This document shows positions 3,491 to 25,708 of a stretch of DNA of 25,708 nucleotides, piece after piece. A program made the translations under genes and the position numbers. The notes under the pieces are model-generated. The model saw nothing but the letters and a program-made list of their open reading frames with translations. It searched no databases and was not told the DNA's origin. Positions within the stretch are counted from its first letter, which is position 1, and the number at the start of each line of letters is the position of its first letter. Source of the DNA: Thermoproteota archaeon (GTDB lineage Archaea; Thermoproteota; Nitrososphaeria; Nitrososphaerales; Nitrososphaeraceae); NCBI GenBank assembly GCA_046731995.1, contig JBKPMB010000294.1, positions 1 through 25,708 on the forward strand, written 5' to 3'.

Positions 3491-3687
3491 CTAGACCTTA
3501 TTACTATCTTCATCACTATAAAACTTGAGGGCTAGCCTAAAAAAAGCATCAAATATATCATTATACGATGTAGGTTCTTTCTCTAAAGTACTGTCGTTAT
3601 CCACGGCAGTTTTTTGAGTGCCGTTATCAGCTTGTCAAAGCTGTCTGGATTGATAGCAATTTTTCTTGATTTCTGTTCTAATATCAT
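3491..3687 (-). pseudogene. Frameshifted copy (repeat A1) of the small terminase-large-subunit-like C-terminal fragment found intact at 12567-12764
   Basis: Minus-strand translation gives MILEQKSRKIAINPDSFDKLITALKK, then a frameshift in the T-run at about 3610-3616, then AVDNDSTLEKEPTSYNDIFDAFFRLALKFYSDEDSNKV and a stop. It aligns at the nucleotide level with 12567-12764. Confidence 0.45.
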
Positions 3688-3762
3688 CTTGTGGTGTGTC
3701 CTAGCATGGTTTTATGTTCTCTATTGAAGTTTACACGAACTATTCTTATGCCCTCGCTTATC

Positions 3763-3885
3763 AAAATCAAACTAAGTGGATATTAGTTAGCTGTTGTTTT
3801 AGTTAGCTGTTCCCATAACTTGCTTATCATTGATATACACTAAGAATACATAAGTGACTATCTCCATCTAGTTTGATATTTTAAA
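3763..3885 (+). repeat. Repeat B1: conserved upstream/promoter cassette (contains a 16-nt internal tandem ttagttagctgtt and a TATA-like tattttaaa)
   Basis: Aligns with 12357-12460 (cataacttgcttatcattgatatacacta versus cgtaacttgcttatgattgatatacacta, and so on). Its last 29 nt (actatctccatctagtttgatattttaaa, 3857-3885) recur exactly at 16706-16734. Confidence 0.7.
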
Positions 3886-3938
3886 CTCTAGTATTATTAG
3901 GAGTAGTATTAGTAGCAGCAACACTAGTCATATCAGCA

Positions 3939-4469
3939 TTGGCAGTGGCACCAGCGCTAGCAGGGGGCCAAGACAAAAGGGACAAATACGACAAAAAAGG
4001 AGATAGCAGCGCTACAGTTACAAAACAAGCAAGCAAGCAAAAGGGAGTCCTAAGTGGATTTGTTATTTTTGATGATCAAGACGCGGATAACTGCATAGTC
4101 GTATTAAACGATGCTAATGCATGCCGAGAACAAGGACAACAAGTAACACCACCAACACCACCACCAGAAGTAGGCTGTCCAGACAATACTCTTTACAATG
4201 TAATACTTAGAGAAAACCTAAACGATGGCACTACTATACCCGAAGGAACGATATTGTGTCTGCCTAAAAAACTTGGAGACCAAACAGCAACTATTTCTAC
4301 TGAGACACCTGTGGATTCTATTACTTCATTTGAAGTAGTAGTAGCAAATCCAAATCTGGACCCATGTCCAGAAAGCCCCATCCCTGGATTCTCTCCTGCA
4401 AAAGTGGACTCTGGAGACCCGGGTAACCCAATAGGTCAACATGGCACAGTCTGTATAAAAAAGCAATAG
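3939..4469 (+). CDS. Small secreted Cys-containing protein of unknown function (start codon problematic)
   Basis: 176-aa ORF from TTG 3939. The in-frame upstream codons 3885-3938 encode TLVLLGVVLVAATLVISA, which continues into LAVAPALAGG. That is a signal-peptide h-region plus an AxA site, but it has no ATG/GTG/TTG. The mature part has a PPTPPP linker and 6 Cys. A T-tract follows the stop. Confidence 0.6.
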   Translation: MAVAPALAGGQDKRDKYDKKGDSSATVTKQASKQKGVLSGFVIFDDQDADNCIVVLNDANACREQGQQVTPPTPPPEVGCPDNTLYNVILRENLNDGTTIPEGTILCLPKKLGDQTATISTETPVDSITSFEVVVANPNLDPCPESPIPGFSPAKVDSGDPGNPIGQHGTVCIKKQ

Positions 4470-12356: not shown

Positions 12357-12460
12357 AAAACCAAACCTAATTGATGTTAGTTAGCTGATTGCCGTAACTT
12401 GCTTATGATTGATATACACTAGTAATACATCAGGGATTATCTTCACACAGTTTATATGTG
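12357..12460 (+). repeat. Repeat B2: second copy of the upstream/promoter cassette, with no gene attached
   Basis: aaaaccaaacctaattgatgttagttagctgattgccgtaacttgcttatgattgatatacactagtaatacatcagggattatcttcacacagtttatatgtg aligns with 3763-3885, at roughly 80 percent identity by eye. Confidence 0.65.
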
Positions 12461-12566
12461 ATTACTAATCTACTACGTAATTAAAACTTATCAATATCGA
12501 TGGATCTCAACATAAGCAAAGTCATTGTTGCTGTCTCTTCCTTTTCAATAGTCTTTATTGTTTTAT

Positions 12567-12764
12567 TTAATAATCATCTTTTTCTTTGAAATGATAAAAC
12601 TTCAAAGCTAGTCTAAAGGCATCAAATATATCGTTATAGGATGTTGATTCTTTGTCTAGTGCTCCATCATTGTCCACGGCAGTTCGCAATGCTGTTATTA
12701 GCTTGTCAAATTTATCTGGATTGATTGCAATGCGACCACCATCGTTTTCCAATATTGAAAGCAA
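12567..12764 (-). pseudogene. Repeat A2: stand-alone 65-codon fragment resembling the C-terminus of a phage/virus terminase large subunit (RNase-H-fold nuclease tail); tentative
   Basis: The sequence is ILENDGGRIAINPDKFDKLITALRTAVDNDGALDKESTSYNDIFDAFRLALKFY. The ...(D/N)D..DA.R.AL ending is reminiscent of terminase large-subunit C-termini. The ORF opens only 4 codons after an upstream stop and uses TTG, so it looks like the 3' stub of a larger gene. Confidence 0.35.
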
Positions 12765-12816
12765 TACAATGATGCCTTAATTGTCATATGGATCAGAAAC
12801 TATATTAGATTATTAT

Positions 12817-14748
12817 CTATCGCTGACTGGTAGGAATTATCCTATATATCGCTTCCTTCGCTGGACTCTTGTATGGATAACCATGATCCATTTGTATAGA
12901 AAGAACATATAGATATCCATCAGGTCCAACTTGTATATCCGTAATTGGACCGAATCCATAACCAAATAGCATGTTTCCATAACGAAATGTTATATTATGC
13001 ATAAAATCAGGGTTTGATACTAGGTTGTTGTTATTATTATTTGTCCTTGCCGTAATTTGGCTTATACGTATTACATCAAACAAAGTAACGGCTTCCTTAC
13101 CTGGTTGGGAAGACCATCCAGCGTTTAATATTGGACGTATTTTTGCTATGTTTGCAGGTATTATCATTTCACATCTATACTCATGCCATTCCAATGGTCC
13201 ATCGGTACCTGCAGGACATTGTGTCTTAAGCGGGTTCCACGTCTTTGAAGTTTCATCATATCCTTCTATAGCTATATGGGATGCTCTAGCAAACTCATTT
13301 AGTTTCATATGAGTTATTATTTGATATTTTTCATCTGGAATAACATCTATTTCTTTACCAATAATATATGACCATGTATCATTATTAGTCAAGCTTGTAA
13401 GGACCTGAAAACTGGTTTTGATATTTTGCCATCCATTAGTGGAGTTGACTATACATTCAAAATTATATACACAACGCCTAAGGGGATCAGTCCAATTTGC
13501 AGGTAGCTGTGCTTGACCATTATATACTGTCTTGTTTGAGATCGATGAGTCATTTAGGACTAATCCATTTCTTTGATTATTTAGTTTGAAATGGTAGAGA
13601 TTACCATTATTAAAATCTCCTATAAACATATCATTTTCATATTGTTTTCCAAATTTACTGGAGTTCAAGAATTTCAATGCAGTTGGACCGATGGTCTGAT
13701 TCCATATAAGCTCCGGTGCTCGGTATTTTCCTTTTCCTCCAAAGTCTACCAACCCTCTTTCTGGATTTATTGCTACTGGCCCCTCCTGACGAGGAGGAAA
13801 GACACCATTTGGTTTCCACATGCCTTGTACTTGCATCCATCCACTGTTAAACCCGGGTTCAACAAGGTTAATCTCATCTCCAAAATACGGCCCATTTTCT
13901 GTATCCCACAATTTTTTAGTTATAGGGTCAAAGTCAAATCCAAAACTATTGCGTATACCGTATGCATAGTATAGGTTTAGAGGATAATTGTCACCAATAA
14001 TGCCTTTTCCAACTGGTTGACCGTTTTGAGTAATTCTAAGTATTCCGCTTGTTCCATCAGGATCTGTTCCGTTTTGAAAGTTCTGAGCTTTAGTTCTATG
14101 GCGACGCAGATCACCGATCACAAGATAGAGATCATTGTCTGGACCAACCAGCATTCTACCACCATTATGCTGGGGTCCTGGAGTCGCTGGAAGGCTTAGA
14201 AGCGGTTTGGGATTAACTAATTGATTATTTAGTAATTCATATCTATAAAGGCAATTGCATTTTGGTTTTATACCTGCAGCATCATCACCAGTTTTTCCTA
14301 CACCAGATTCTGTAAGGTACAAGAAAACAAATGTAGTTGCAGGTTGAGTGTCATTGGTCTTGCTTTTTATGCTACCGACAGGAACTCCTAGCATACCCCT
14401 TTCTTGTTCTGTTGCTACATTAACATGGAGCAATGGTTTAGAATGTAATGTACCGTTCACAATTCTCTCCACTGTTCCATTATTTTTTTGTAACAGCAAG
14501 ATATCATTTGGACCCAAAAATGCCATAGATGAAGGGAATTTGTCTCCCTTGAATACCGTCTCTACTTTTAAGTTGGGATCAGCGATAACAGGCGGATGAT
14601 CAGTTATCGTTTTACCAGTTACTGGGGATCCCGAAGATGAAGAGGAAGGGGTTTCTTGGGCAAATGTCAAATGAGAAATTTGGACCAACGTAGCAATAAT
14701 AATGCTGACTCCAATCGTTGTCACTATGACCAGATTTCTCTGCAGCAT
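12817..14748 (-). CDS. Secreted glucose/sorbosone-dehydrogenase-like (GSDH, PQQ-type) beta-propeller with a jelly-roll (CBM4_9-like) module inserted before the last blade
   Basis: GSDH signatures are LKVETVFKGDKFPSSMAFLGPNDILLLQKNNGTVERI, HNGGRMLVGPDNDLYLVIGD, SGILRITQNG, YAYGIRNSFGFDFDPITKKLWDTENGPYFGDEINLVEPGFNSGW, and the terminal blade ITDIQVGPDGYLYVLS...AIYRIIP. The signal peptide is MLQRNLVIVTTIGVSIIIATLVQISHLTFAQE, from ATG 14748. The track ORF starts at TTG 14814. Confidence 0.85.
   Translation of the reverse strand: MLQRNLVIVTTIGVSIIIATLVQISHLTFAQETPSSSSSGSPVTGKTITDHPPVIADPNLKVETVFKGDKFPSSMAFLGPNDILLLQKNNGTVERIVNGTLHSKPLLHVNVATEQERGMLGVPVGSIKSKTNDTQPATTFVFLYLTESGVGKTGDDAAGIKPKCNCLYRYELLNNQLVNPKPLLSLPATPGPQHNGGRMLVGPDNDLYLVIGDLRRHRTKAQNFQNGTDPDGTSGILRITQNGQPVGKGIIGDNYPLNLYYAYGIRNSFGFDFDPITKKLWDTENGPYFGDEINLVEPGFNSGWMQVQGMWKPNGVFPPRQEGPVAINPERGLVDFGGKGKYRAPELIWNQTIGPTALKFLNSSKFGKQYENDMFIGDFNNGNLYHFKLNNQRNGLVLNDSSISNKTVYNGQAQLPANWTDPLRRCVYNFECIVNSTNGWQNIKTSFQVLTSLTNNDTWSYIIGKEIDVIPDEKYQIITHMKLNEFARASHIAIEGYDETSKTWNPLKTQCPAGTDGPLEWHEYRCEMIIPANIAKIRPILNAGWSSQPGKEAVTLFDVIRISQITARTNNNNNNLVSNPDFMHNITFRYGNMLFGYGFGPITDIQVGPDGYLYVLSIQMDHGYPYKSPAKEAIYRIIPTSQR
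13055..13510 (-). other. Inserted jelly-roll / carbohydrate-binding-like module (copy in the beta-propeller protein)
   Basis: LPANWTDP...TWSYIIGKEIDVIPDEKYQIITHMKLNEFARASHIAIEGYDETSKTW...LEWHEYRCEMIIPANIAKIRPILNAGWSSQPGKEAVTLFDVIRISQI aligns along its whole length with 23511-23975 on the plus strand. Confidence 0.8.
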
Positions 14749-14938
14749 AATAATATTGGAAACATTAGAGAATCTAAGAGATATATACATGTGTACTTTC
14801 GATACATCTACCAATGGTAGATATCAAAGAAGGACTTGTTTAGTAATTTCAATTAAATTAGAGCGTGTCTCTCCCGCTTTAGTGATTTTATGAAGGAAGG
14901 ATTAGCACCCTCAATGTCATATTTGCTTCTTCTTGTTA

Positions 14939-16555
14939 TCAGGCAAAGACTCTCTTACTTGCTGTCCAATATACTGTAAAACTACCAGGTGATGGTGGAG
15001 TTGTAAAGGTTACATCAAATGAAGATGAATTGATATTAGTAACCCTAGGAATACCACCTGATGTAGTGGATGGATTTACGGTGACAACTGTAGGCGTTAT
15101 ATCCAAGTTGTGATTGATTGTAAATGATGTATTTGACCCGTTACCAGTTAATGAAGCAGCACCTTCATTATTGGTACGATACCCTTCATTATCCCATACT
15201 CTAACATTTGAGTTGGGACCACTGAAGGTGTCTAAAACAAAAGTAGACCGCAAAATCGGATTGCATATTTGATTACCATGAAACATAATGTTAGCACACC
15301 CACCGAATATTCTGAATGCATAGTTGGATGTGTTTGCTTGGCTGTTGTCTTCTTGGTGAAAAAAGTTGCCGTGGACGTTCATGTTGTTGCATCCTTCTAC
15401 GTAACACAAGCCTCTATCACCACCTGTTCCATTACTGGCATTAGAATCTCGTAGTTGGTTGCAGCTCATAATTACCGGACCGCTGACATGTACCAGATGT
15501 ATCAAAGACCACTGACTGTTAGACATTACATTATTTTGGATATTTACCTGCTGAATGCTACCGTTAGCAGGATCGTTGTTAGGGTCTCCGTTTATCCACA
15601 ACCTGCAGTATTTCATAGCATTGTTTGAAAATATGATGTTCCTAAATGGAGTTCGTCTAAAACCACCAGTTGACCAGTTAGTTCCACCAAATAATACTGT
15701 ACCGCCTCTCATGGCATTGTTTGACATCACTATACGGTCGTATACCCCGCCTCTAGGCTCTACCGTGATAAAATCAGCACCGATGTCGGTATCCTGACGC
15801 ACAAACACATTTCCAGTTACGACGTAATTTTCGATACCACCCGATGTAAGACTGCTACCAAAAATGCTGCCGCCAATGCCTGCGGTGCGCTTATCAAAGA
15901 AGTTGTTTGTGACATATGCATGTTCTGTTGATCCGATTGCGACCTGATCTTGTAAACTCGTTTTATCAAACCAGCAACTATCAATCCATATTCCAAGCGT
16001 TTGGAAAGTATGACAGCCCACACCGTTATTGCCGGCGTTCATAAAATGGACTCTTTGTACCCAGTTTCTTGTAGGTGAACCATTATACAATTGACCGCCA
16101 GACAAACCTTGACCGTCAATAGTAAAGTCAGATGCGCTGCCATGTGTCCACCATCGCAACATAGTAAATGGCCTTGCCGCAGGATCGTGCTTTATCACTA
16201 CAGAATTCATAGACTCGCCCCTCAAAGTAATGAAAGCATCAGGGTATGTTTGCGAGCCAATCGCTCTTTCCGCGTTTAGTGTGTATGTTCCAGCCTTTAG
16301 ATAAACAAGCCCGCCTGCTTGTTGTACTGCATTGATTACTGAACCAAATAGCGATGTAGTTTCAGCAGATGTAGCTGGAGCTGATGCAGTTGAGCAGTAA
16401 AGTGGGCCTGTTATTCCGTTTACTGCATTCACTCTGCCACTATCGTCTATGTAAATTGTATAGGTTGGTACTTTGATAGAATTTGTGTCGACGCTACCAC
16501 GGCTACCAGTACCAAGCTCGTCAACATAATCATCAATGTCAGTTTTTGGCGGCAT
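14939..16555 (-). CDS. Right-handed parallel beta-helix protein (pectate-lyase-3 / tailspike-like N-terminal domain, PbH1 repeats, C-terminal beta-sandwich); no signal peptide
   Basis: VINAVQQAGGLVYLKAGTYTL is the pectate_lyase_3-type opening. Repeated NN-turn motifs are present: TNNFFDK, TGNVFVRQ, SNNAMRGG, SNNAMKYC, IQNNVMSNS, HGNFFHQ, HGNQICN. The C-terminus is SLTGNGSNTSFTINHNLDITPTVVTVNPSTTSGG...FDVTFTTPPSPGSFTVYW. The N-terminus MPPKTDIDDYVDELGTGS is hydrophilic. Confidence 0.85.
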   Translation of the reverse strand: MPPKTDIDDYVDELGTGSRGSVDTNSIKVPTYTIYIDDSGRVNAVNGITGPLYCSTASAPATSAETTSLFGSVINAVQQAGGLVYLKAGTYTLNAERAIGSQTYPDAFITLRGESMNSVVIKHDPAARPFTMLRWWTHGSASDFTIDGQGLSGGQLYNGSPTRNWVQRVHFMNAGNNGVGCHTFQTLGIWIDSCWFDKTSLQDQVAIGSTEHAYVTNNFFDKRTAGIGGSIFGSSLTSGGIENYVVTGNVFVRQDTDIGADFITVEPRGGVYDRIVMSNNAMRGGTVLFGGTNWSTGGFRRTPFRNIIFSNNAMKYCRLWINGDPNNDPANGSIQQVNIQNNVMSNSQWSLIHLVHVSGPVIMSCNQLRDSNASNGTGGDRGLCYVEGCNNMNVHGNFFHQEDNSQANTSNYAFRIFGGCANIMFHGNQICNPILRSTFVLDTFSGPNSNVRVWDNEGYRTNNEGAASLTGNGSNTSFTINHNLDITPTVVTVNPSTTSGGIPRVTNINSSSFDVTFTTPPSPGSFTVYWTASKRVFA

Positions 16556-16705
16556 TTACATGTGCCATTATATTCCCTTATCTATAGGTCTATGCTAATA
16601 CAACTATTTGAGGCGTCTAAGTATTACATTCTATCATAGACAGCACTAGTTGTGGTTACAATGGAGTCTTCAATAATCCCTTAATAAACTAGTATTCTAT
16701 TCTAA

Positions 16706-16836
16706 ACTATCTCCATCTAGTTTGATATTTTAAAGACGTATACTAAAGTGGAGATGATAGTACTGGTGGACAAGACGGCTCCAATTGTATTGCTGTAGTC
16801 AATGATGCTAATGCATGCCGAGAACAAGGAGCATAA
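16706..16836 (+). pseudogene. Truncated paralog of the 3939-4469 gene: promoter cassette (B3) plus an internally deleted coding stub
   Basis: 16706-16734 is identical to 3857-3885 (29 nt). 16750-16836 encodes GDDSTGGQDGSNCIAVVNDANACREQGA and a stop, versus ...DDQDADNCIVVLNDANACREQGQQ in the full gene. A 27-nt identical run gatgctaatgcatgccgagaacaagga occurs at 16804-16830 and 4110-4136. Confidence 0.6.
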
Positions 16837-16871: not shown

Positions 16872-17648
16872 TCATTTCTCAATTATACCTACCACTATTC
16901 CAGTAGCTGTAGCGTTAGAGTGATCATATTTTGCATCTTTCGCAGCTACCCAGTCCACTTCTTGCCACTTGTATCCAGAAATTCGTTTAAGGTAGTATTG
17001 TTTATCAAACCTCAGTATACCTTTGCTCAATAAGTTGTCCATGTGAGGATTATATCCAAGGCCGATTATAACTAGAATCTGTCCCCCGGGACCTAAAATT
17101 CTCTTCAAGTTTTGAATTGCTCGGATAATCTTCGTAGGATCCTCTGGTATTTCACTCCAACCCACGTGCTCTAATACTAAAATACTCACAATTAGATCAT
17201 ATTGCTTGCCAGGATTAAAATCAACTACATCCTCATTGATGACGCCATCAGTAATTTCATACTTGTCTAAAATATCATGGTTGACCTTAAAAACATAAGG
17301 GAGAACATTACCTACTTCAAGAATTCTTTTATTTTGCCTCTGGTATCTTTTTACTACCTCCCAAACTATTGGTAATGCGACCAATCTCTCATTTTTCCAA
17401 CTTGGTGCTGCCATTTCGATTCTAGGATGGAAAAAGTAATGATATGTATTTCCTTGAAGCTGAAAAGTATCTGATGATTTAAATCTCTTATAATACCACA
17501 GCCAAAAGCGATCTGTAACCATTGTAATACCAATATGGAAAACACGATAAAGACCCTTAGTACGATAGGCTTCCATTGCTTCTGCCAAAAGTTGCCTGTA
17601 TCCTCTTGTTACTCGCGCAGGTTTGTAGAAATGCCGACTGGAACTCAT
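16872..17648 (-). CDS. Class I SAM-dependent methyltransferase-like protein
   Basis: The evidence is RILEVGNV (degenerate motif I), YDLIVSILVLEHV (motif II/III region) and LKRILGPGGQILVIIG (post-motif). It sits inside the glycan cluster, divergent from wecB. Confidence 0.65.
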   Translation of the reverse strand: MSSSRHFYKPARVTRGYRQLLAEAMEAYRTKGLYRVFHIGITMVTDRFWLWYYKRFKSSDTFQLQGNTYHYFFHPRIEMAAPSWKNERLVALPIVWEVVKRYQRQNKRILEVGNVLPYVFKVNHDILDKYEITDGVINEDVVDFNPGKQYDLIVSILVLEHVGWSEIPEDPTKIIRAIQNLKRILGPGGQILVIIGLGYNPHMDNLLSKGILRFDKQYYLKRISGYKWQEVDWVAAKDAKYDHSNATATGIVVGIIEK

Positions 17649-17767: not shown

Positions 17768-18883
17768 ATGACTTTTGCAATAATAACCGGTACTAGACCA
17801 GAAATAATAAAGCTTTTCCCCATCATGAAATTGTTTTCTGAAAAAGCAGTTGATTATAAGTTTATTCACACGGGTCAGCACTTTGATTATGAATTGTCCC
17901 TCAAGTTTATCGAGGAATTTGGAATTCGTAAACCAGACTACAATATCGTACTAAAAAAATGTGCCGAACTACCTCAAGAACAACAAACTGCTGAAATTAT
18001 GATGAAAATTGGCTATATCTTTCGGAATGAATTTTTCCCCTCACTGATATTGATTGAAGGCGATACAAATAGCGTTCTAGCAAGTGCGTTAACGGCTATT
18101 AAAGCCAATATTCCTATTGCACACCTTGAAGCAGGCTTAAGAAGTAATGATTGGAAGTCATTTGAAGAACACAATCGACGCATTGTAGATTGTGTTGCTG
18201 ATATACTATTTGCTCCAACTAGCGAATCTGCAAATAACCTAAAGATAGAGCATGTTCATGGTGATGTGCACATAGTAGGAAATACTGTGATGGATGCTAT
18301 CAAGTTATGTCTGCGATCTGATGAGAATTGTAGTGATGACAATAACAATATTCTAAAATATATTGAATCAAAAATTAATAGTCACTTTGTCCTAGTAACT
18401 CTGCACAGGGCAGAGAATGTGGATAACCGAGATTTCCTAAGGCATGTATTGACTGCATTATCTAATTCAAAGCATAACTACGTTTTTCCTATGCATCCTC
18501 GAACTTCAAAGAGAATTCGAGAATTTGGATTAGAAAATCTTATAACAAAGCAAATTATAGTTACTAATCCGGTGGGTTATTTCGATTTTTTGAGGCTACT
18601 TAGAATGTGCATGTTTATAATTACTGACTCAGGTGGAGTGCAGGAAGAAATAACGTCCCCATCTATAAACAAACGTGCAATAGTGTTGCGTAAATATACT
18701 GAAAGACCGGAGTCGATTCAGACTGGTCATGCTATATTATGCAAAGCTGAAAAAAATGAAATTCTTTCTGCAATTAAAAAAATCCAAACGGCTACAGAGA
18801 TTGCTACATTTCAATCTCCATACGGTTCAGGAAACTCAGCAGAAAAAATAGCTTCAATTCTCGAAAAAACGTCTTACGTATAA
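17768..18883 (+). CDS. wecB: UDP-N-acetylglucosamine 2-epimerase (non-hydrolysing)
   Basis: The evidence is IITGTRPEIIKLFPIM, HTGQHFDYELS, GDTNSVLASALTAIKANIPIAHLEAGLRS, EEHNRRIVDCVADILFAPT, TLHRAENVD, HPRT and ITDSGGVQEE. Canonical family motifs occur along the full length. Confidence 0.92.
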   Translation: MTFAIITGTRPEIIKLFPIMKLFSEKAVDYKFIHTGQHFDYELSLKFIEEFGIRKPDYNIVLKKCAELPQEQQTAEIMMKIGYIFRNEFFPSLILIEGDTNSVLASALTAIKANIPIAHLEAGLRSNDWKSFEEHNRRIVDCVADILFAPTSESANNLKIEHVHGDVHIVGNTVMDAIKLCLRSDENCSDDNNNILKYIESKINSHFVLVTLHRAENVDNRDFLRHVLTALSNSKHNYVFPMHPRTSKRIREFGLENLITKQIIVTNPVGYFDFLRLLRMCMFIITDSGGVQEEITSPSINKRAIVLRKYTERPESIQTGHAILCKAEKNEILSAIKKIQTATEIATFQSPYGSGNSAEKIASILEKTSYV

Positions 18884-19241: not shown

Positions 19242-20201
19242 TCACTCATAGACAGAGGTATCGCCATGATCATCTTTATCGTGTTTGTATTTGGAAGGAA
19301 TTTTAACCTCCTTATAATTCATTTCCATTGATCTTTCACTATCTGTGAATCTTCTATAATTAGTAGTCTGTTTGTTTGTATTATGTAACGAACGTGCGTT
19401 CTTCCAAATTAAGAAAAGATCTCTTCCCATTGTTGTAGTTTGTTTAATGATGTCAATTTTTGATCCCTCATCATGACTCCACTTAATTGGTACCTCTTTG
19501 ATTCGTAATCCGTGTATAGAGGCAATCACTAATAGCTCAGAGTCAAAAGCAAATCCGGTAGTTTTAATCTCTGGTAGAATTTTTAATACTTCGTTTCTTC
19601 TAAGTATCTTCAATCCACACTGAGGATCGTAAATTTGCAATTCCGACAATAGTCTGAAAGCGCTAGAGTAGATATGTGAAAAAATTGCCCTAGTCATTGG
19701 TCTTTTAATTGGGGGAAGATTTCCACGCAATGCTCTAGAGCCCACCACAATGTCGTAGTTATCTATGTGATCAAGTAGTCTCTGAATTTCTGAAGGATCT
19801 GCTGATAAATCAGCGTCCATATAAGCAATATAATTGCCACTTGCCTTCCTAGTCGCATTCATTAGAGCTCCGCCTTTCCCCATTCGAGCCTTGAGCGATA
19901 TCAGTTTTATCCTATTATCTTCAGACTGGAAGTCATCTACAATTTTAGCTGTATTATCTACACTGCCATCTACTGCAACGAGTATTTCGAAATCCCATTG
20001 CTCTTCTATACAGTATTGCAGTGTTCTTGTTAGACATTTTCTTATTCTTTTTTCTTCATTGTATGCTGGTATAATTATGCTAATGCTCAAATCAGGATAT
20101 GTACTAGCATGTTTGTCAGTGTGGCTTTTTTTATTGGAAATACTATTATTTGTGAGATCATGTTCTTTTAGATGACGCCTTTTTAAGGGATCTTCTTCCA
20201 C
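19242..20201 (-). CDS. Glycosyltransferase family 2, dolichyl-phosphate hexosyltransferase-like
   Basis: The evidence is ISIIIPAYNEEKRIRKCL, FEILVAVDGSVDNTAKIV, YMDADLSADPSEIQRL and PQCGLKIL. The start is either GTG 20201 (with a basic, His-rich 37-aa extension) or TTG 20090 directly before the conserved core. Confidence 0.85.
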   Translation of the reverse strand: MEEDPLKRRHLKEHDLTNNSISNKKSHTDKHASTYPDLSISIIIPAYNEEKRIRKCLTRTLQYCIEEQWDFEILVAVDGSVDNTAKIVDDFQSEDNRIKLISLKARMGKGGALMNATRKASGNYIAYMDADLSADPSEIQRLLDHIDNYDIVVGSRALRGNLPPIKRPMTRAIFSHIYSSAFRLLSELQIYDPQCGLKILRRNEVLKILPEIKTTGFAFDSELLVIASIHGLRIKEVPIKWSHDEGSKIDIIKQTTTMGRDLFLIWKNARSLHNTNKQTTNYRRFTDSERSMEMNYKEVKIPSKYKHDKDDHGDTSVYE

Positions 20202-20390: not shown

Positions 20391-21539
20391 TTATCGATTA
20401 TGCAAAAGTTTTATAATTTCTGTTAGCTGTTTTACTGAAATTTTATCCCAGTTTAGCATACTGGTAACCAAGGCTTTTGAGTTAGCGGCCAATGATTTCC
20501 GCTTTTCATCATCTGCAATGAGATTGGTAATAGACTTCGTCATTTGTTCCTTGTCACCTACTTCTACTTTAATTATGTCTTTACCAAAGATCTTGTATGC
20601 AGATAGATCATAACAAACAACTGCCAATTCACAAGCCATTGCTTCACTAACTGCTATACCCCACCCTTCTTCATAGCTTGGGGAAACAAATATTTTTGCA
20701 GATTTAATAGTAGCAATCTTTCGTTCTCCAAAAAGATAGCCGGTAAACGTTATATTTTTATCTAAAGCTTTATTTTTAACGGTTTTTACCAAATCAGAAT
20801 ATACTGGCCCATCACCAATAATTACGAGTTTTGCGTTTGGGAAGGATTTTAATACTTTTTCCCATATTGCAGGTAAATCATAAACTCCTTTTTTTTGATC
20901 TATTCTACCACAAAAACAAGCATCAAACTTTTTCCCATTTACTTTTACAGAATCTATAAGATTATGTTCTACTCCATTATCTGTTACAATGATTTTGTTA
21001 GCCTGAAACCCTTTGGCAATCAAGTCATTCTTTATGTCAGGATTTACTACAAAAATTAAGTCTGCCTTCTTACATAGAAATAAGCTCATCTTCTCATTTA
21101 TTAAGTTTATATTACTCCATATCCCTTGTTTATAAGTCCGAAAGGGTCTCAGTATGTGATGTACATAAACAACTAATCTGGATTTCAATCTTCTACATAA
21201 AATCAATGCAGGCAACACATCATAGAGCAGATGCGATGATGCTATAATCACATCTGGGCTTTGTTTGAATCTGAAAAGTGAACTCCGTAGAATTCGGAAC
21301 AGGTAGAATAGTGATTCTCTACTATGACCTCTTACTTCCTTTTCGTACGAAGAAAAATAAATATTGTAGTCATCAGCTGATAATAATATATTTTTAGAAA
21401 ACATGTAACCAGACTTGGGAATAATAACAGATACACTGTGCTCCTTATTCCATCTCTCCATCACATGTAATATGTGATATTCTCCGCCGGCAATCGTCTT
21501 TACGCCCCATCCATTAGCCATGACTAATATCCTGAACAC
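20391..21539 (-). CDS. Glycosyltransferase family 4 (GT-B, retaining type)
   Basis: FRILVMANGW...GGEYH is the N-terminal GT4 opening. SPSYEEGWGIAVSEAMACELAVVCYD is the E-x7-E motif. The GTG start at 21539 is preferred because the conserved RILV lies upstream of the first ATG. Confidence 0.85.
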   Translation of the reverse strand: MFRILVMANGWGVKTIAGGEYHILHVMERWNKEHSVSVIIPKSGYMFSKNILLSADDYNIYFSSYEKEVRGHSRESLFYLFRILRSSLFRFKQSPDVIIASSHLLYDVLPALILCRRLKSRLVVYVHHILRPFRTYKQGIWSNINLINEKMSLFLCKKADLIFVVNPDIKNDLIAKGFQANKIIVTDNGVEHNLIDSVKVNGKKFDACFCGRIDQKKGVYDLPAIWEKVLKSFPNAKLVIIGDGPVYSDLVKTVKNKALDKNITFTGYLFGERKIATIKSAKIFVSPSYEEGWGIAVSEAMACELAVVCYDLSAYKIFGKDIIKVEVGDKEQMTKSITNLIADDEKRKSLAANSKALVTSMLNWDKISVKQLTEIIKLLHNR

Positions 21540-22441: not shown

Positions 22442-25400
22442 ATGAACTCCTATTTGGTGAATATAAAGAGATACGATTATTTAATTGCCTCAATAGGCTA
22501 TTTCCTAATAGCATTATTCATTTTAAATAGGATTTTATTTTTCTCTCCTGGTACAATTGGATTTTTTCATGACTGGCCAATAGGTCCTTATCCTGAAATG
22601 AACCGATCCTATGCAAATGGTGGCCTCTATGTTTGGAATTCCCAGGTAGGAAACATACTTTTCCCTACTGACTGGATATTTCGTCTAAGTCTTCTTCCAT
22701 TTTCGTTTCTGAATGGAGAAATTCTTACTAAAGGGATATTACTTTTGGTCATAACTCTAAGTGGGTTTGGTGCTTTTTACCTTGGAAAGCAGCTTAAGCT
22801 AAGTCCGTTTTCTTCATTTGCAGCCGGAGTTTTATTTATTTTCTCATCGATAGTATTTACAAGAATCGTAGCTGGGCATATTTATTATCTTATCTCATAT
22901 TTTCTGAGTCCATTTATAGTTGCTTTCTTTCTGAAAGGCAGAGAAGAGGTTAAGAAAAATAGACAACGGGATAAAAAGGAAGTAAATTATAAAAACTTCA
23001 AGTACTTTGTAATTGCGGGTATTTTAACATCCTTTGCAGCTATTCAGCTCCAATTTTTAGTAATGATATTTCTTGTTTTATTAGTCTTTACTGTTCTTGA
23101 CTTTGGAAGAATTAAAAAATCTGCTATAGGTCTGATAATAGTTTTTTCTATCGCATCCTTAGTTAATTTGTCTCCTATAATACCTAGCGACGCCTTATCA
23201 ACCAAGTCTTCTTTATCGCATTTTAATCCCACTACTCTTTTATCATTCGACGAGGTGACTCATGCGTCTGATTTAACAAAAAGTTTAAGATTATTAGGAT
23301 ACGAGCTTCATCCATATAGCTATACAGAGATAGGTACTTCAGATGATCATTTAATTGAGTATGATATTAAAAGAATAATGGAAAATAAACCAAATCTGGT
23401 AGCAAATCCTAATTTTGTATTAGTAGGTGGTAGTGGTAGTAGTAATAATAGTAGTAGTAACACTAGCAATAGTAGTAATAGTAATAACAATACTAGTCAA
23501 TCAAAGCTGCCTATAAATTGGACTGATCCCTCTGGAAATTGTAATCACATTTTTAAGTGTATAGTTTTTCAATTTAAAAAAACTACTGCTGGATTGCAAA
23601 ATAGTACAAATAGCTTTCAAATCTCTACAAATAAAACATCTCCTAATCAAAAAACTTGGTCATGGATTTATGGTAAAGAAATAAACGCTAATCCTGGAGA
23701 ACAATATGGAGTCATAACTCATATGAAATTAAACGAGTTTGCTATACGATCTCATATAGGCATAGCAGGATATAATGATACTTCAAAGGTGTGGATGGAA
23801 ATCATACAATGTCCTTCAGGTGGTAATGTGCAGCCAGAATGGCATGAGTACAGCTGTGCGATAACAATACCAAATGGCATTACCAAAATAAGACCAATAT
23901 TAAATGCTGGATGGTCTTCTCAGCCAGGTAAGGAAGCTATCACTTTGTTTGGTGCTATGTGGATAAGTAAGATAGACTATGCAAGTGGTATCATCCCATC
24001 ATGGATATTTTCTTTAGATTTTTTGATTCCTATAACTGGATTCTCAACTCTCATTTTTAGAAAAGACAAGTATACGCTTTCGTTTGCTATGATATCTTTG
24101 ATTGGATTATTCCTTTTGAAAGGACCTAATCCCCCGTTACAGAATATTTTTAACTTTATTTTTATTCACGGTTTTTATATTTTTAGAGAAGTTTGGCACG
24201 TCGCTTTCTTGTATGGATTTGGTATATCATTTTTAATCGTATTTTTTCTGGAGAAAATAATAACAATAACGTCTTCATTTTCTAAGCTTGGGAGTTATTC
24301 AAATATCTATAAGCATCAGAGGCATCAACATCATCATAATAATTTTTTTCATAAATTAGCATCCTCATCATTATTTTTCTTCTACTACGTAAATGATAAA
24401 CTCAAAAATTATTACAAAATTATTATATCTTCCTTTTTAATTTCTCTTATAGTAATTTCTAATGGATATCCTTTATTGCTAGGAAATTTTGGAGGATATC
24501 TGCAGACCTATGATTTTACAAAAGATTATCATACATTATATAACAATCTTCTTACAAATAGTACTTTTAATACCTTAATGCTTCCTTCGCTTGGTCCAAT
24601 TCAATATGATGGTTTAAAGTTATCAGGCCTAGATCCTTTGAGTACCTATTCTTCTAGCAACATATTCTATCAGGATTATGATGGTGTATCCTATCCACTA
24701 TTGGGTACAATTACTTGGTTACATACCGTTATGCAGGAGAACAAGACTAGCAATCTAGGAAAGTTTCTAAGTGGTTTTGGAATAAAATATGTAATTTTAA
24801 GAAAGGATTTTGTATCCAATTATCCACTTTTTACCACATTAGGAAATTACGGTCCATTTCTAAAAAGGTGGTATGCATCTCTTGAACCATTTTTGGATGC
24901 TCAAAATGATCTAACCGTGTTGTCGAATACACCCCATTATAAAATATACGAGAATAGCAATAATGCAAAAAAATTTTTTATCCCTTTAATAGCTACAAAA
25001 GGAATATATGATTATCGAAGTCTGCTTTATATCTCTAATTTTACTTCACTTTCTAACATAGCAGTATACCCATCAGATTATGGCGACAAGGCTTACACGA
25101 AATTTGATAATTCAAGGGATGAAAAATCCACCTATGATTTTGAAGATTTAGGAAAGTATGCCACATCGTACACTGCAGCTAAAGGATGGACAACCAATAG
25201 AGATTGGTTTGGATATGATTATTTATTGGCGTCCCGAGTTCACACAGGTGCATTTAGTACTGTACGCAATTCTACATTTTCATTTGATTTTCCTACTCCG
25301 CATAAATATGAAAATAAACCTATTGAAATGTGGATGAGGGTTTTGACTTGGCCCAATGGAAAGACTGTAAGCATCAGTATTAATGGAAAACAATCTCGGT

Positions 25401-25708
25401 ATTCATTATTCTCTTTATATCCCAATTTTTCTTTCATCAAGATTTTTGATGGAAGGTCCACTGATGGATTATATCATTTATCAATTACAAATATCGTAGG
25501 AAGTAATTATATCGAAGGCATTTATATGAAGGAAAAAAGTCATAGCGGAGATCGCAAAGATATAAATAACATTTTCTTGATTGACACACAGAACAAACCA
25601 AATCTGGTAGCAAATCCTAATTTTGTATTAGTAGGTGGTAGTGGTAGTAGTAATAATAGTAGTAGTAACACTAGCAATAGTAGTAATAGTAATAACAATA
25701 CTAGTCAA
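22442..25708 (+). CDS. Partial (3'-open) gene for a large polytopic membrane protein of at least 1089 aa. It looks like a GT-C-type glycosyltransferase (AftD/DUF3367-like architecture) carrying the jelly-roll module in an external loop. It is not in the supplied ORF track.
   Basis: I translated every codon from ATG 22442 to 25708 by hand and found no stop. TAG at 22436-22438 closes the frame upstream. Hydrophobic blocks lie at about 22442-23200 and 24000-24480. Soluble parts contain FHDWPIGPYPE, GNFGGYLQTYDF, MLPSLGPIQYDG, GIKYVILRKDF and HYKIYEN. The GT-C assignment is an inference from architecture. Confidence 0.85.
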   Translation, partial: MNSYLVNIKRYDYLIASIGYFLIALFILNRILFFSPGTIGFFHDWPIGPYPEMNRSYANGGLYVWNSQVGNILFPTDWIFRLSLLPFSFLNGEILTKGILLLVITLSGFGAFYLGKQLKLSPFSSFAAGVLFIFSSIVFTRIVAGHIYYLISYFLSPFIVAFFLKGREEVKKNRQRDKKEVNYKNFKYFVIAGILTSFAAIQLQFLVMIFLVLLVFTVLDFGRIKKSAIGLIIVFSIASLVNLSPIIPSDALSTKSSLSHFNPTTLLSFDEVTHASDLTKSLRLLGYELHPYSYTEIGTSDDHLIEYDIKRIMENKPNLVANPNFVLVGGSGSSNNSSSNTSNSSNSNNNTSQSKLPINWTDPSGNCNHIFKCIVFQFKKTTAGLQNSTNSFQISTNKTSPNQKTWSWIYGKEINANPGEQYGVITHMKLNEFAIRSHIGIAGYNDTSKVWMEIIQCPSGGNVQPEWHEYSCAITIPNGITKIRPILNAGWSSQPGKEAITLFGAMWISKIDYASGIIPSWIFSLDFLIPITGFSTLIFRKDKYTLSFAMISLIGLFLLKGPNPPLQNIFNFIFIHGFYIFREVWHVAFLYGFGISFLIVFFLEKIITITSSFSKLGSYSNIYKHQRHQHHHNNFFHKLASSSLFFFYYVNDKLKNYYKIIISSFLISLIVISNGYPLLLGNFGGYLQTYDFTKDYHTLYNNLLTNSTFNTLMLPSLGPIQYDGLKLSGLDPLSTYSSSNIFYQDYDGVSYPLLGTITWLHTVMQENKTSNLGKFLSGFGIKYVILRKDFVSNYPLFTTLGNYGPFLKRWYASLEPFLDAQNDLTVLSNTPHYKIYENSNNAKKFFIPLIATKGIYDYRSLLYISNFTSLSNIAVYPSDYGDKAYTKFDNSRDEKSTYDFEDLGKYATSYTAAKGWTTNRDWFGYDYLLASRVHTGAFSTVRNSTFSFDFPTPHKYENKPIEMWMRVLTWPNGKTVSISINGKQSRYSLFSLYPNFSFIKIFDGRSTDGLYHLSITNIVGSNYIEGIYMKEKSHSGDRKDINNIFLIDTQNKPNLVANPNFVLVGGSGSSNNSSSNTSNSSNSNNNTSQ
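23387..23500 (+). repeat. 114-bp perfect direct repeat, copy 1 (encodes KPNLVANPNFVLVGGSGSSNNSSSNTSNSSNSNNNTSQ)
   Basis: A character-by-character comparison with 25595-25708 shows 114/114 identity, in the same reading frame of the same ORF. Confidence 0.95.
23511..23975 (+). other. Jelly-roll / carbohydrate-binding-like module (copy in the giant membrane protein)
   Basis: LPINWTDP...TWSWIYGKEINANPGEQYGVITHMKLNEFAIRSHIGIAGYNDTSKVW...PEWHEYSCAITIPNGITKIRPILNAGWSSQPGKEAITLFGAMWISKI. The pattern (W...PG..Y....vK...........W.ey...i.iP.....ir..L) fits CBM4_9/galactose-binding-like domains. Confidence 0.8.
25595..25708 (+). repeat. 114-bp perfect direct repeat, copy 2; the window ends at its last base
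   Basis: Identical to 23387-23500. Confidence 0.95.

Follow-up and report, generated by a model that had tools for sequence, protein, structure and literature searches.

How does a gene for a tailspike-like protein come to stand outside a virus, in the genome of an archaeon? The question is raised by one gene (14939-16555, minus strand) on contig JBKPMB010000294.1 of a Nitrososphaeraceae archaeon (assembly GCA_046731995.1), which encodes a protein of 538 amino acids (aa) that we call P0001. The window that we analyzed is this entire contig (C294; 25,708 nucleotides, 25.7 kb), and the source metagenome-assembled genome comprises 2.39 Mb on 345 contigs with a completeness of 81.5%. A first-pass annotation, made from the sequence alone, had suggested that P0001 could be a domesticated viral depolymerase. 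On balance, we lean towards the view that P0001 is the body of a virus-derived tailspike-type depolymerase, captured without its anchor and kept as an accessory cell gene in a variable glycan island. The tailspike-like fold, the anchored homologs, the patchy distribution and the mildly atypical composition together make domestication of a viral depolymerase the best-supported reading, but they do not fix the direction of transfer, and the terminase-like stub near the gene is not a provirus remnant. P0001 belongs to a protein type that is already known but represents a new sequence family among its members, and the case as it stands is that of a plausible but ordinary tailspike-type depolymerase gene outside a virus.

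Gene and predicted fold of P0001

The reading frame of P0001 is intact, as first annotated. An in-frame TAA stands immediately 5' of its ATG, so that an upstream extension is impossible, and the same stop precedes the start in a relative's contig from another sample (L003). The N-terminus is hydrophilic and lacks a secretion signal, again as first described: the highest 15-residue Kyte-Doolittle mean within the first 60 residues is 0.56, compared with the mean of 2.0 at which we set the flag for a signal peptide or transmembrane segment. An exact-sequence contig look-up with P0001 returned nothing.

Structure prediction bore out the proposed order of a beta-helix followed by a C-terminal beta-sandwich. 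The single-chain AlphaFold2 (AF2) model, built from five sequences, reached a predicted local distance difference test score (pLDDT) of 75.9 and a predicted TM-score (pTM) of 0.74. It begins with a predicted disordered N-terminus (residues 1-28, 16472..16555, minus strand; pLDDT <50 for residues 1-27), followed by a small cap with one helix and a right-handed parallel beta-helix at residues ~80-445 (cap and helix together residues 29-445, 15221..16471, minus strand). The cap consists of a TYTIYID...NG..G motif plus helix 63-77. In a 15-sequence alignment, the Asn ladder of the beta-helix (N280, N312, N342, N366, N372, N397 and N428) is invariant, the acidic residues D147, D203 and E266, candidates for a catalytic carboxylate pair or triad, are invariant or nearly so, and the motifs WFDKT..DQ and FDKR are conserved across the family. 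Strand periodicity over residues 80-445 and Foldseek probabilities of 1.00 to many beta-helix enzymes place this region in the right-handed beta-helix fold class. The coils noticed earlier are thus present, but about eight is too low a count: at 25-30 residues per turn, we estimate ~12 turns from the AF2 model and the Asn ladder.

Phage tailspikes lead the structural matches of the whole protein. Foldseek against the PDB was headed by the tailspikes phi297 gp61, cyanophage Pam1, Dettilon, HK620 and LKA1 gp49, intermixed with AlgE4/AlgE6 epimerase A-modules, chondroitinase B and polysaccharide lyase family 6 (PL6) lyases, with E-values (E) of 6e-7 to 1e-4 and TM-scores of 0.3-0.55. Among the predicted viral structures of BFVD, phage tail proteins of the "pectate lyase superfamily" ranked first, with E-values as low as 4e-11. 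The C-terminal beta-sandwich (residues 459-536, 14948..15181, minus strand), which resembles tailspike C-domains and H-type lectins, was also modeled in isolation (pLDDT 75.9). Its best PDB matches were the C-domains of AP22 gp54, Pam1, LKA1 gp49 and phi297 gp61, followed by H-type lectins and the R2 pyocin fibre, all of them weak (E 0.013-0.08, TM-score per query (TMq) 0.46-0.62). As for the lectin likeness, PF09458 matched at E 0.1 in the homolog P0004 only, and Foldseek matched 4q56 and 2ccv at E 0.05-0.07 (TMq 0.54). At fold level, the predicted structure supports a tailspike-like architecture for P0001, and the viral link proposed earlier for its C-terminal module holds at the level of fold and homology.

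Sequence comparison places P0001 at a distance from known families. P0001 had no match in Pfam even at E<=10, including PF12708 (Pect-lyase_RHGA_epim, formerly Pectate_lyase_3), and none by sequence in the PDB, with no detectable similarity to solved tailspikes. A single marginal PHROGs match covered its C-terminal 50 residues (E 0.004). The 15-sequence family profile found one weak match in the PDB, to the N-terminal part and first coils of AlgE4 (E 0.007). The pectate_lyase_3-type opening read from the sequence is therefore missing from P0001 as a Pfam match, but it has some footing in the wider family, in which 16 of 100 distant relatives match PF12708 and the profile weakly matches AlgE4.

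Homologs and their gene contexts

The nearest relatives of P0001 include proteins with N-terminal anchors. In a collection of 5.8 billion proteins, just four clusters match it: P0002 (92% identical, truncated), P0003 (55% identity, 607 aa, anchor type B), P0004 (53% identity, 795 aa, anchor type A) and P0005 (37% identity, 519 aa, anchor-less). Maximum-likelihood analysis pairs the P0001 clade with P0003 as its sister and puts P0004 just outside this pair, both nodes having 100/100 support. The anchors of P0003 and P0004 span 70-260 aa, and in the alignment P0001 starts where both of them end, 28 residues before the cap; these 28 residues align with the end of the P0004 anchor/linker region. 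P0004 is extended at its N-terminus by 260 residues that contain QTLTNKT...NT repeats; the gene 3' of it also opens with these repeats, on a different body. The gene for P0003 is one of eleven that abut one another in the same direction on an 11.3-kb contig, and none of the eleven matches Pfam.

A related anchor occurs in a gene block of a same-family genome. The P0004 anchor matches a 378-aa open reading frame (ORF) there (45% identity over 112 residues, E 7e-21), within a block of 14 co-directional genes (L023; G139:C177:1-13856). This block contains a capsid-like ORF (Phage_capsid_4, E 1.6e-3, under the Pfam cut-off), a papain-like peptidase and an ORF that matches a tail-fibre PHROG (E 4.8e-8), and the two ORFs directly after the anchor-bearing one both end in a C-domain of the P0001 type. 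The block looks like the structural module of a head-tail virus. Taken with the architectures of P0003 and P0004, it means that anchor, beta-helix body and C-domain behave as shuffled tail-fibre modules in virus-like blocks of this archaeal family. Also present in the block are a coiled-coil ORF of scaffold-like type and a tandem of three receptor-binding-type genes, of which one carries the anchor and two an H-lectin-like C-domain.

More distant relatives are numerous and share the same general character. An exhaustive hidden Markov model (HMM) search recovered 1140 proteins at E<=1e-3 and 25 at E<=1e-30, of which hundreds share only the C-domain with P0001. Among 100 relatives, Pfam assigned Beta_helix to 45, NosD to 26 and PF12708 to the 16 already mentioned, and PHROGs assigned 24 to tail-spike families (12 each for two PHROGs) and single members to tail-fibre families. 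A hydrophobic N-terminus was lacking in 141 of 152 relatives, including all 40 of the closest.

Compared with well-studied tailspikes such as LKA1 gp49, phi297 gp61, Pam1 and HK620, P0001 shares the central right-handed beta-helix, the C-terminal beta-sandwich and the lack of a signal peptide, and its nearest homologs of the P0003/P0004 type have N-terminal anchors and tail-fibre-like neighbors. Unlike phage tailspikes, however, P0001 has no N-terminal particle-binding domain, and whereas relatives are encoded next to tail genes, its own gene stands by itself in an archaeon's cellular glycan island. It also differs from solved tailspikes in sequence, as noted above.

Variation, composition and direction of transfer

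The anchor-less form of P0001 recurs across samples and has been under purifying selection. Its cluster (n=24) contains intact variants of 538 aa and 535 aa with a common start, along with fragments that carry the frameshift of P0002; at least three intact anchor-less variants (92%-98% identical) have a common truncated start and length. The L003 contig is 90% identical in nucleotides (nt) to the window at 16632-14794 only. This shared stretch comprises the gene, ~75 nt upstream with a TATA-like element and ~145 nt downstream, and the flanks differ, which fits a mobile gene; past it, L003 runs into a TFIIB gene where the window has a GSDH-like gene. Over 535 codons, the ratio of nonsynonymous to synonymous substitution rates (dN/dS) between P0001 and the L003 copy is 0.22 at dS 0.20. 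Since the two copies share both the truncation and the downstream junction, this ratio indicates constraint since the anchor-less form arose.

The upstream region conserved together with the gene (16556..16632, minus strand; homology begins near 16632) contains the TATA-like TATAGATAAG at 16577-16586 (minus strand), 22-31 nt 5' of the ATG, a placement that would fit a leaderless archaeal transcript. A sigma-70 promoter scan of the region gave background levels and is irrelevant, as the consensus is bacterial and the host archaeal. Downstream, 24 nt 3' of the P0001 stop, lies a 13-aa piece, IEGANPSFIKSLK (14877..14915, minus strand), which corresponds to residues 378-390 of a 500-aa TerL-like paralog in this genome (tblastn, 92% identity, E 0.013). 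The corresponding position of L003 reads VYVDGANP/FIKSLKL, and the beta-helix gene has therefore traveled with this TerL-like junction.

The distribution of the gene is patchy. We did not find it in 4 same-genus and 196 other same-family genomes, where nothing more than a match to the C-domain and a short stub of the N-terminal part came to light. Nor did P0001 show a conserved housekeeping synteny, which would have spoken for a cellular enzyme. A synteny comparison with the same-genus genomes was impossible because the genes of the island are not conserved there.

Composition sets the gene apart, to a modest degree. The 60-nt counts of guanine plus cytosine (GC) quoted by the first-pass annotation (31/60 at 15841-15900, 27/60 at 16081-16140, 15/60 at 20941-21000 and 13/60 at 24361-24420) were exact on recount. 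Over its full length, the gene has a GC content of 0.427, compared with 0.360 for the genome (z=+2.6), and 0.84% of the 1617-nt windows of the genome are as high. The GC-richer patch is real, but it is modest when P0001 is ranked among the 975 ORFs of at least 200 aa, at the 95th percentile for GC, the 97th for GC at second codon positions (GC2) and the 90th at third positions (GC3). A sliding-window and codon analysis thus preserves the compositional difference, although it shrinks relative to the impression given by the sampled lines. The high GC2 reflects a protein rich in Gly, Asn, Thr and Ser and poor in Lys (1.5%) and Glu (2.0%), values that seem low to us in a genome of 36% GC. In synonymous codon use, P0001 deviates more than any other gene of the contig (z=-2.5), but genome-wide it ranks only at the 10.7th percentile among ORFs of at least 300 aa. 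One virus-like contig (L002) has a GC content of 0.444, near that of the gene.

If P0001 was captured from a virus, it would be a polysaccharide-active beta-helix enzyme of the glycosidase or lyase type with a lectin-like C-terminal beta-sandwich, equivalent to the enzymatic and receptor-binding body of a tailspike from head-tailed viruses of this archaeal lineage. The gene would have passed from virus to cell without its N-terminal virion anchor and acquired its own start codon and promoter. It would now be a lone accessory in a strain-variable surface-glycan island, a rearrangement-prone region marked by TerL-like stubs. We infer that the protein forms a trimer and cleaves a surface glycan or exopolysaccharide (EPS), a polymer that the neighboring genes presumably make and that presumably served the donor virus as its receptor. 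Without a signal, P0001 could act on lipid-linked or cytoplasmic intermediates, or leave the cell by another route. Judged by its gene content, the host lineage is probably a soil ammonia-oxidizing archaeon of the Nitrososphaerales. A more elaborate scenario, which we regard as doubtful, is that these archaea domesticated the tailspike body and keep it under selection in their variable glycan island, without its anchor, to remodel or shed the receptor glycan of the donor virus, in protection against superinfection or in EPS turnover, and that capture and shuffling took place via an undescribed, highly multi-copy TerL-derived selfish element with stubs flanking the gene.

To our knowledge, the viruses of soil ammonia-oxidizing archaea are barely known and their receptor-binding proteins uncharacterized. 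The gene family described here connects virus tail-fibre-like proteins, with two anchor types and a common lectin-like C-domain, to a host accessory gene in a glycan island. If the captured copy does degrade a host glycan, it would point to a viral receptor and offer a way into the arms races that viruses and hosts wage on the surface of globally important nitrifiers.

Several observations weigh against capture from a virus. First, tblastn of P0001 against GenBank phages gave no match, and that of P0004 gave one 68-aa C-domain match, to a tail protein of Bacillus phage Eldridge (E 4e-4). Pattern scans of IMG/VR with the family alignment (A1), P0003 and P0004 found no relatives, nor did scans of GTDB representative genomes and JGI metagenome contigs, and a profile search in a word-indexed database added one weak match. 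The viral status of the homologs is therefore based on gene-block anatomy and weak hallmark matches. Second, a secreted 827-aa protein from another genome (L025 9976-12459, G039:C12) combines the same cap motif and C-domain with two beta-helix regions and has housekeeping neighbors (asparagine synthase and others), which shows that the C-domain module also exists in a cellular surface protein. Third, P0005 adjoins genes for a glycosyltransferase of family 4 (GT4), a deacetylase, a PMT-like transferase and proteins with carbohydrate-binding modules (CBM), on a contig (L001) whose GC content of 0.359 is host-like. Fourth, anchor-less proteins are scattered over the tree, requiring at least four changes, and a single loss combined with a single swap of the anchor takes as few steps as two gains would, so the tree does not settle the direction of transfer. 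Fifth, the compositional deviation is not only modest but in large part driven by amino acid content. Lastly, one lineage carries a frameshifted copy, so selection on the gene is not universal.

Much of this evidence would also suit an origin in the cell. P0001 could be an old, sporadically retained native glycan-processing enzyme of Nitrososphaerales EPS or glycan islands, such as a chain-trimming hydrolase or lyase of the sort found in many EPS operons, that viruses repeatedly copied onto anchors, in which case transfer ran from cell to virus; we consider this possible, though with a probability well below even. The two separate anchor-less lineages, P0001 and P0005, both stand beside glycosyltransferases in analogous islands, and the host-like contig of P0005, the secreted cellular paralog with the same C-domain, the two independent anchor gains that the tree permits and the purifying selection are all consistent with it. 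The setting also recalls the self-polymer enzymes of EPS operons (AlgL, PslG, PelA and BcsZ), in that P0001, like P0005, is encoded among glycosyltransferase and sugar-nucleotide genes. This is a functional analogy only, since those enzymes have other folds and are exported. A native enzyme is harder to reconcile with the lack of orthologous synteny, as the GT4 proteins of the two islands are merely 25% identical and the contexts are therefore analogous rather than syntenic. The failure to find the gene in the 200 same-family genomes, the lack of a signal peptide in spite of likely extracellular substrates, a GC content and codon use that are the most atypical of the contig, the low Lys and Glu content and the TerL-like piece that travels with the gene also argue against it.

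P0001 might instead be a functionless leftover of a degraded provirus or mobile element, with a selection signal that is older and dates from the virus or element phase. The region is rich in stubs, including TerL-like pieces, a truncated secreted-protein gene and a repeated cassette (described below), the distribution is patchy, and the close lineage of L003 (206-1963) has a 2-bp and then a 1-bp deletion that shift codons 402-448 into another frame. Other metagenome contigs encode the same truncated product (P0158), and this pseudogenization is therefore real rather than an assembly error. Yet the intact variants retain the same truncated start and length, dN/dS remains low between copies that already share the truncation and the TerL-like junction, the 75 nt upstream with the TATA-like element are conserved together with the gene, and the scanned ORFs of the contig include no virion gene besides the TerL-like stubs. 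We therefore find a leftover improbable.

The AlgE4/AlgE6 A-module (PF12708 clan) resembles P0001 in its beta-helix and N-terminal cap (Foldseek E ~6e-6), gives the best TM-score per target among the top fold matches (TMt 0.50-0.55) and, in AlgE4, provides the only sequence-profile match in the PDB; AlgE proteins also lack classical signal peptides. Nevertheless, a cytoplasmic role as an AlgE-type mannuronan C5-epimerase or as a lyase of the PL1/PL6 type, the alternative raised by the first-pass annotation, is very improbable, as it fails the catalytic-motif test: regular-expression scans of P0001 found neither the AlgE motif YG(F/I)DPH(D/E), nor DPH anywhere, nor the PL1 motifs vWiDH and RxPxxR ("IWIDS" at residue 190 is not family-conserved), and P0001 has no Ca-binding R-modules and a different C-domain, of the tailspike or lectin type.

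TerL-like stubs and the surrounding glycan island

A terminase-like fragment does lie near the gene, as first annotated. It is a TerL-like 3' stub (12576..12755, minus strand; residues 440-499), 2.18 kb away and 92% identical over 60 aa to the intact 500-aa paralog (E 2e-29). A second, frameshifted 3' stub (3515..3758, minus strand; residues 416-494) was recovered as three collinear high-scoring segment pairs in different frames and has 77% nt identity to 12594-12731. The intact paralog resembles caudoviral TerL, with matches to Terminase_6C (23.8 bits, cut-off 22.6; E 4.8e-5) and to the TerL family phrog_2 (E 2.5e-22), and has the combination of ATPase and RNaseH-like nuclease that characterizes TerL, whereas the window holds residues 440-499, 416-494 and 378-390 only. 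We also considered that the beta-helix gene might have replaced the 5' part of a TerL-like gene, but no TerL 5' residues were detectable upstream.

Unlike caudoviral TerL, this family behaves as a dispersed repeat. It occupies 34 loci on 32 contigs of this genome, of which two are intact (C153:464-1966, L017, and C26:232-1725, L018) and the others are mostly stubs of the 3' or 5' end. Each repeat consists of the ORF alone, ~1.6 kb long, with 73%-86% nt identity between copies, and no virion genes are adjacent to these loci. Of 201 family genomes, 112 have TerL-like matches, and every same-genus genome has at least 24-30 of them; a 2019 survey of thaumarchaeal mobile elements reported just five TerL hits (PMC6563490). 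Given this dispersal, the stub is no evidence of a provirus at this site, and the earlier description of the surroundings as virus-like debris was not borne out as a local provirus sign, the other scanned ORFs being cellular. The repeat may be an undescribed TerL-derived selfish element, and its stubs could supply dispersed homology that promotes the shuffling of cassettes.

The remaining scanned ORFs describe a cellular neighborhood with many functions in glycan synthesis. They include a Na/H exchanger, a multicopper oxidase with a plastocyanin domain, a GH47-like protein, three glycosyltransferases of family 2 (GT2), one GT4, a UDP-GlcNAc 2-epimerase, a methyltransferase, a GSDH-like secreted protein and a giant membrane ORF. 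Upstream of P0001, Pfam identified the methyltransferase (16872-17648, minus strand), the epimerase (17768-18883, plus strand), a GT2 (19242-20201, minus strand) and the GT4 (20391-21539, minus strand). In the four same-genus genomes, we found no match to the methyltransferase and only distant ones to the epimerase; the glycan island is therefore strain-variable.

The 3' neighbor of P0001 encodes the GSDH-like protein, a secreted beta-propeller with a CBM-like C-domain (12817..14814, minus strand; PF07995, E 1.8e-35). This gene sits between two TerL pieces and is absent from L003, in which homology ends near 14794. The PF07995 family is greatly expanded in this genus, in which the four genomes compared have 22-32 matches apiece.

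The window contains three copies of an 80-nt cassette, at 3799-3885, at 12377-12457 (83% identity) and at 16706-16734, where 29 nt of it remain. The last of these, on the plus strand, is an exact copy of 3857-3885 and precedes a truncated stub of a small secreted protein at 16746-16830 (the whole feature spanning 16706..16830), a paralog of 3939-4469 whose family has copies on at least seven other contigs. At 3885, the cassette abuts an ORF (3885-4469) that encodes a signal peptide without a start codon. The order of cassette and TerL stub is inverted between the 3515-3885 locus and the 12377-12457 locus. We considered a discrete att-bounded element at 12458-16705, with the copies at 12377-12457 and 16706-16734 as its end repeats, but did not adopt it: the repeat occurs in this contig only, its order relative to the TerL stub is reversed at 3515-3885, and L003 shares just 14794-16632.

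Two further repeats involve the giant membrane ORF. Its Asn/Ser-rich linker contains a 117-nt direct repeat of 99% identity (23384-23500 and 25592-25708) that coincides with the end of the contig, and the assembly therefore probably breaks there. Finally, the CBM-like domain of the GSDH-like gene (13061-13523) recurs, inverted, in the giant ORF (23490-23967), with 72%-78% nt identity.

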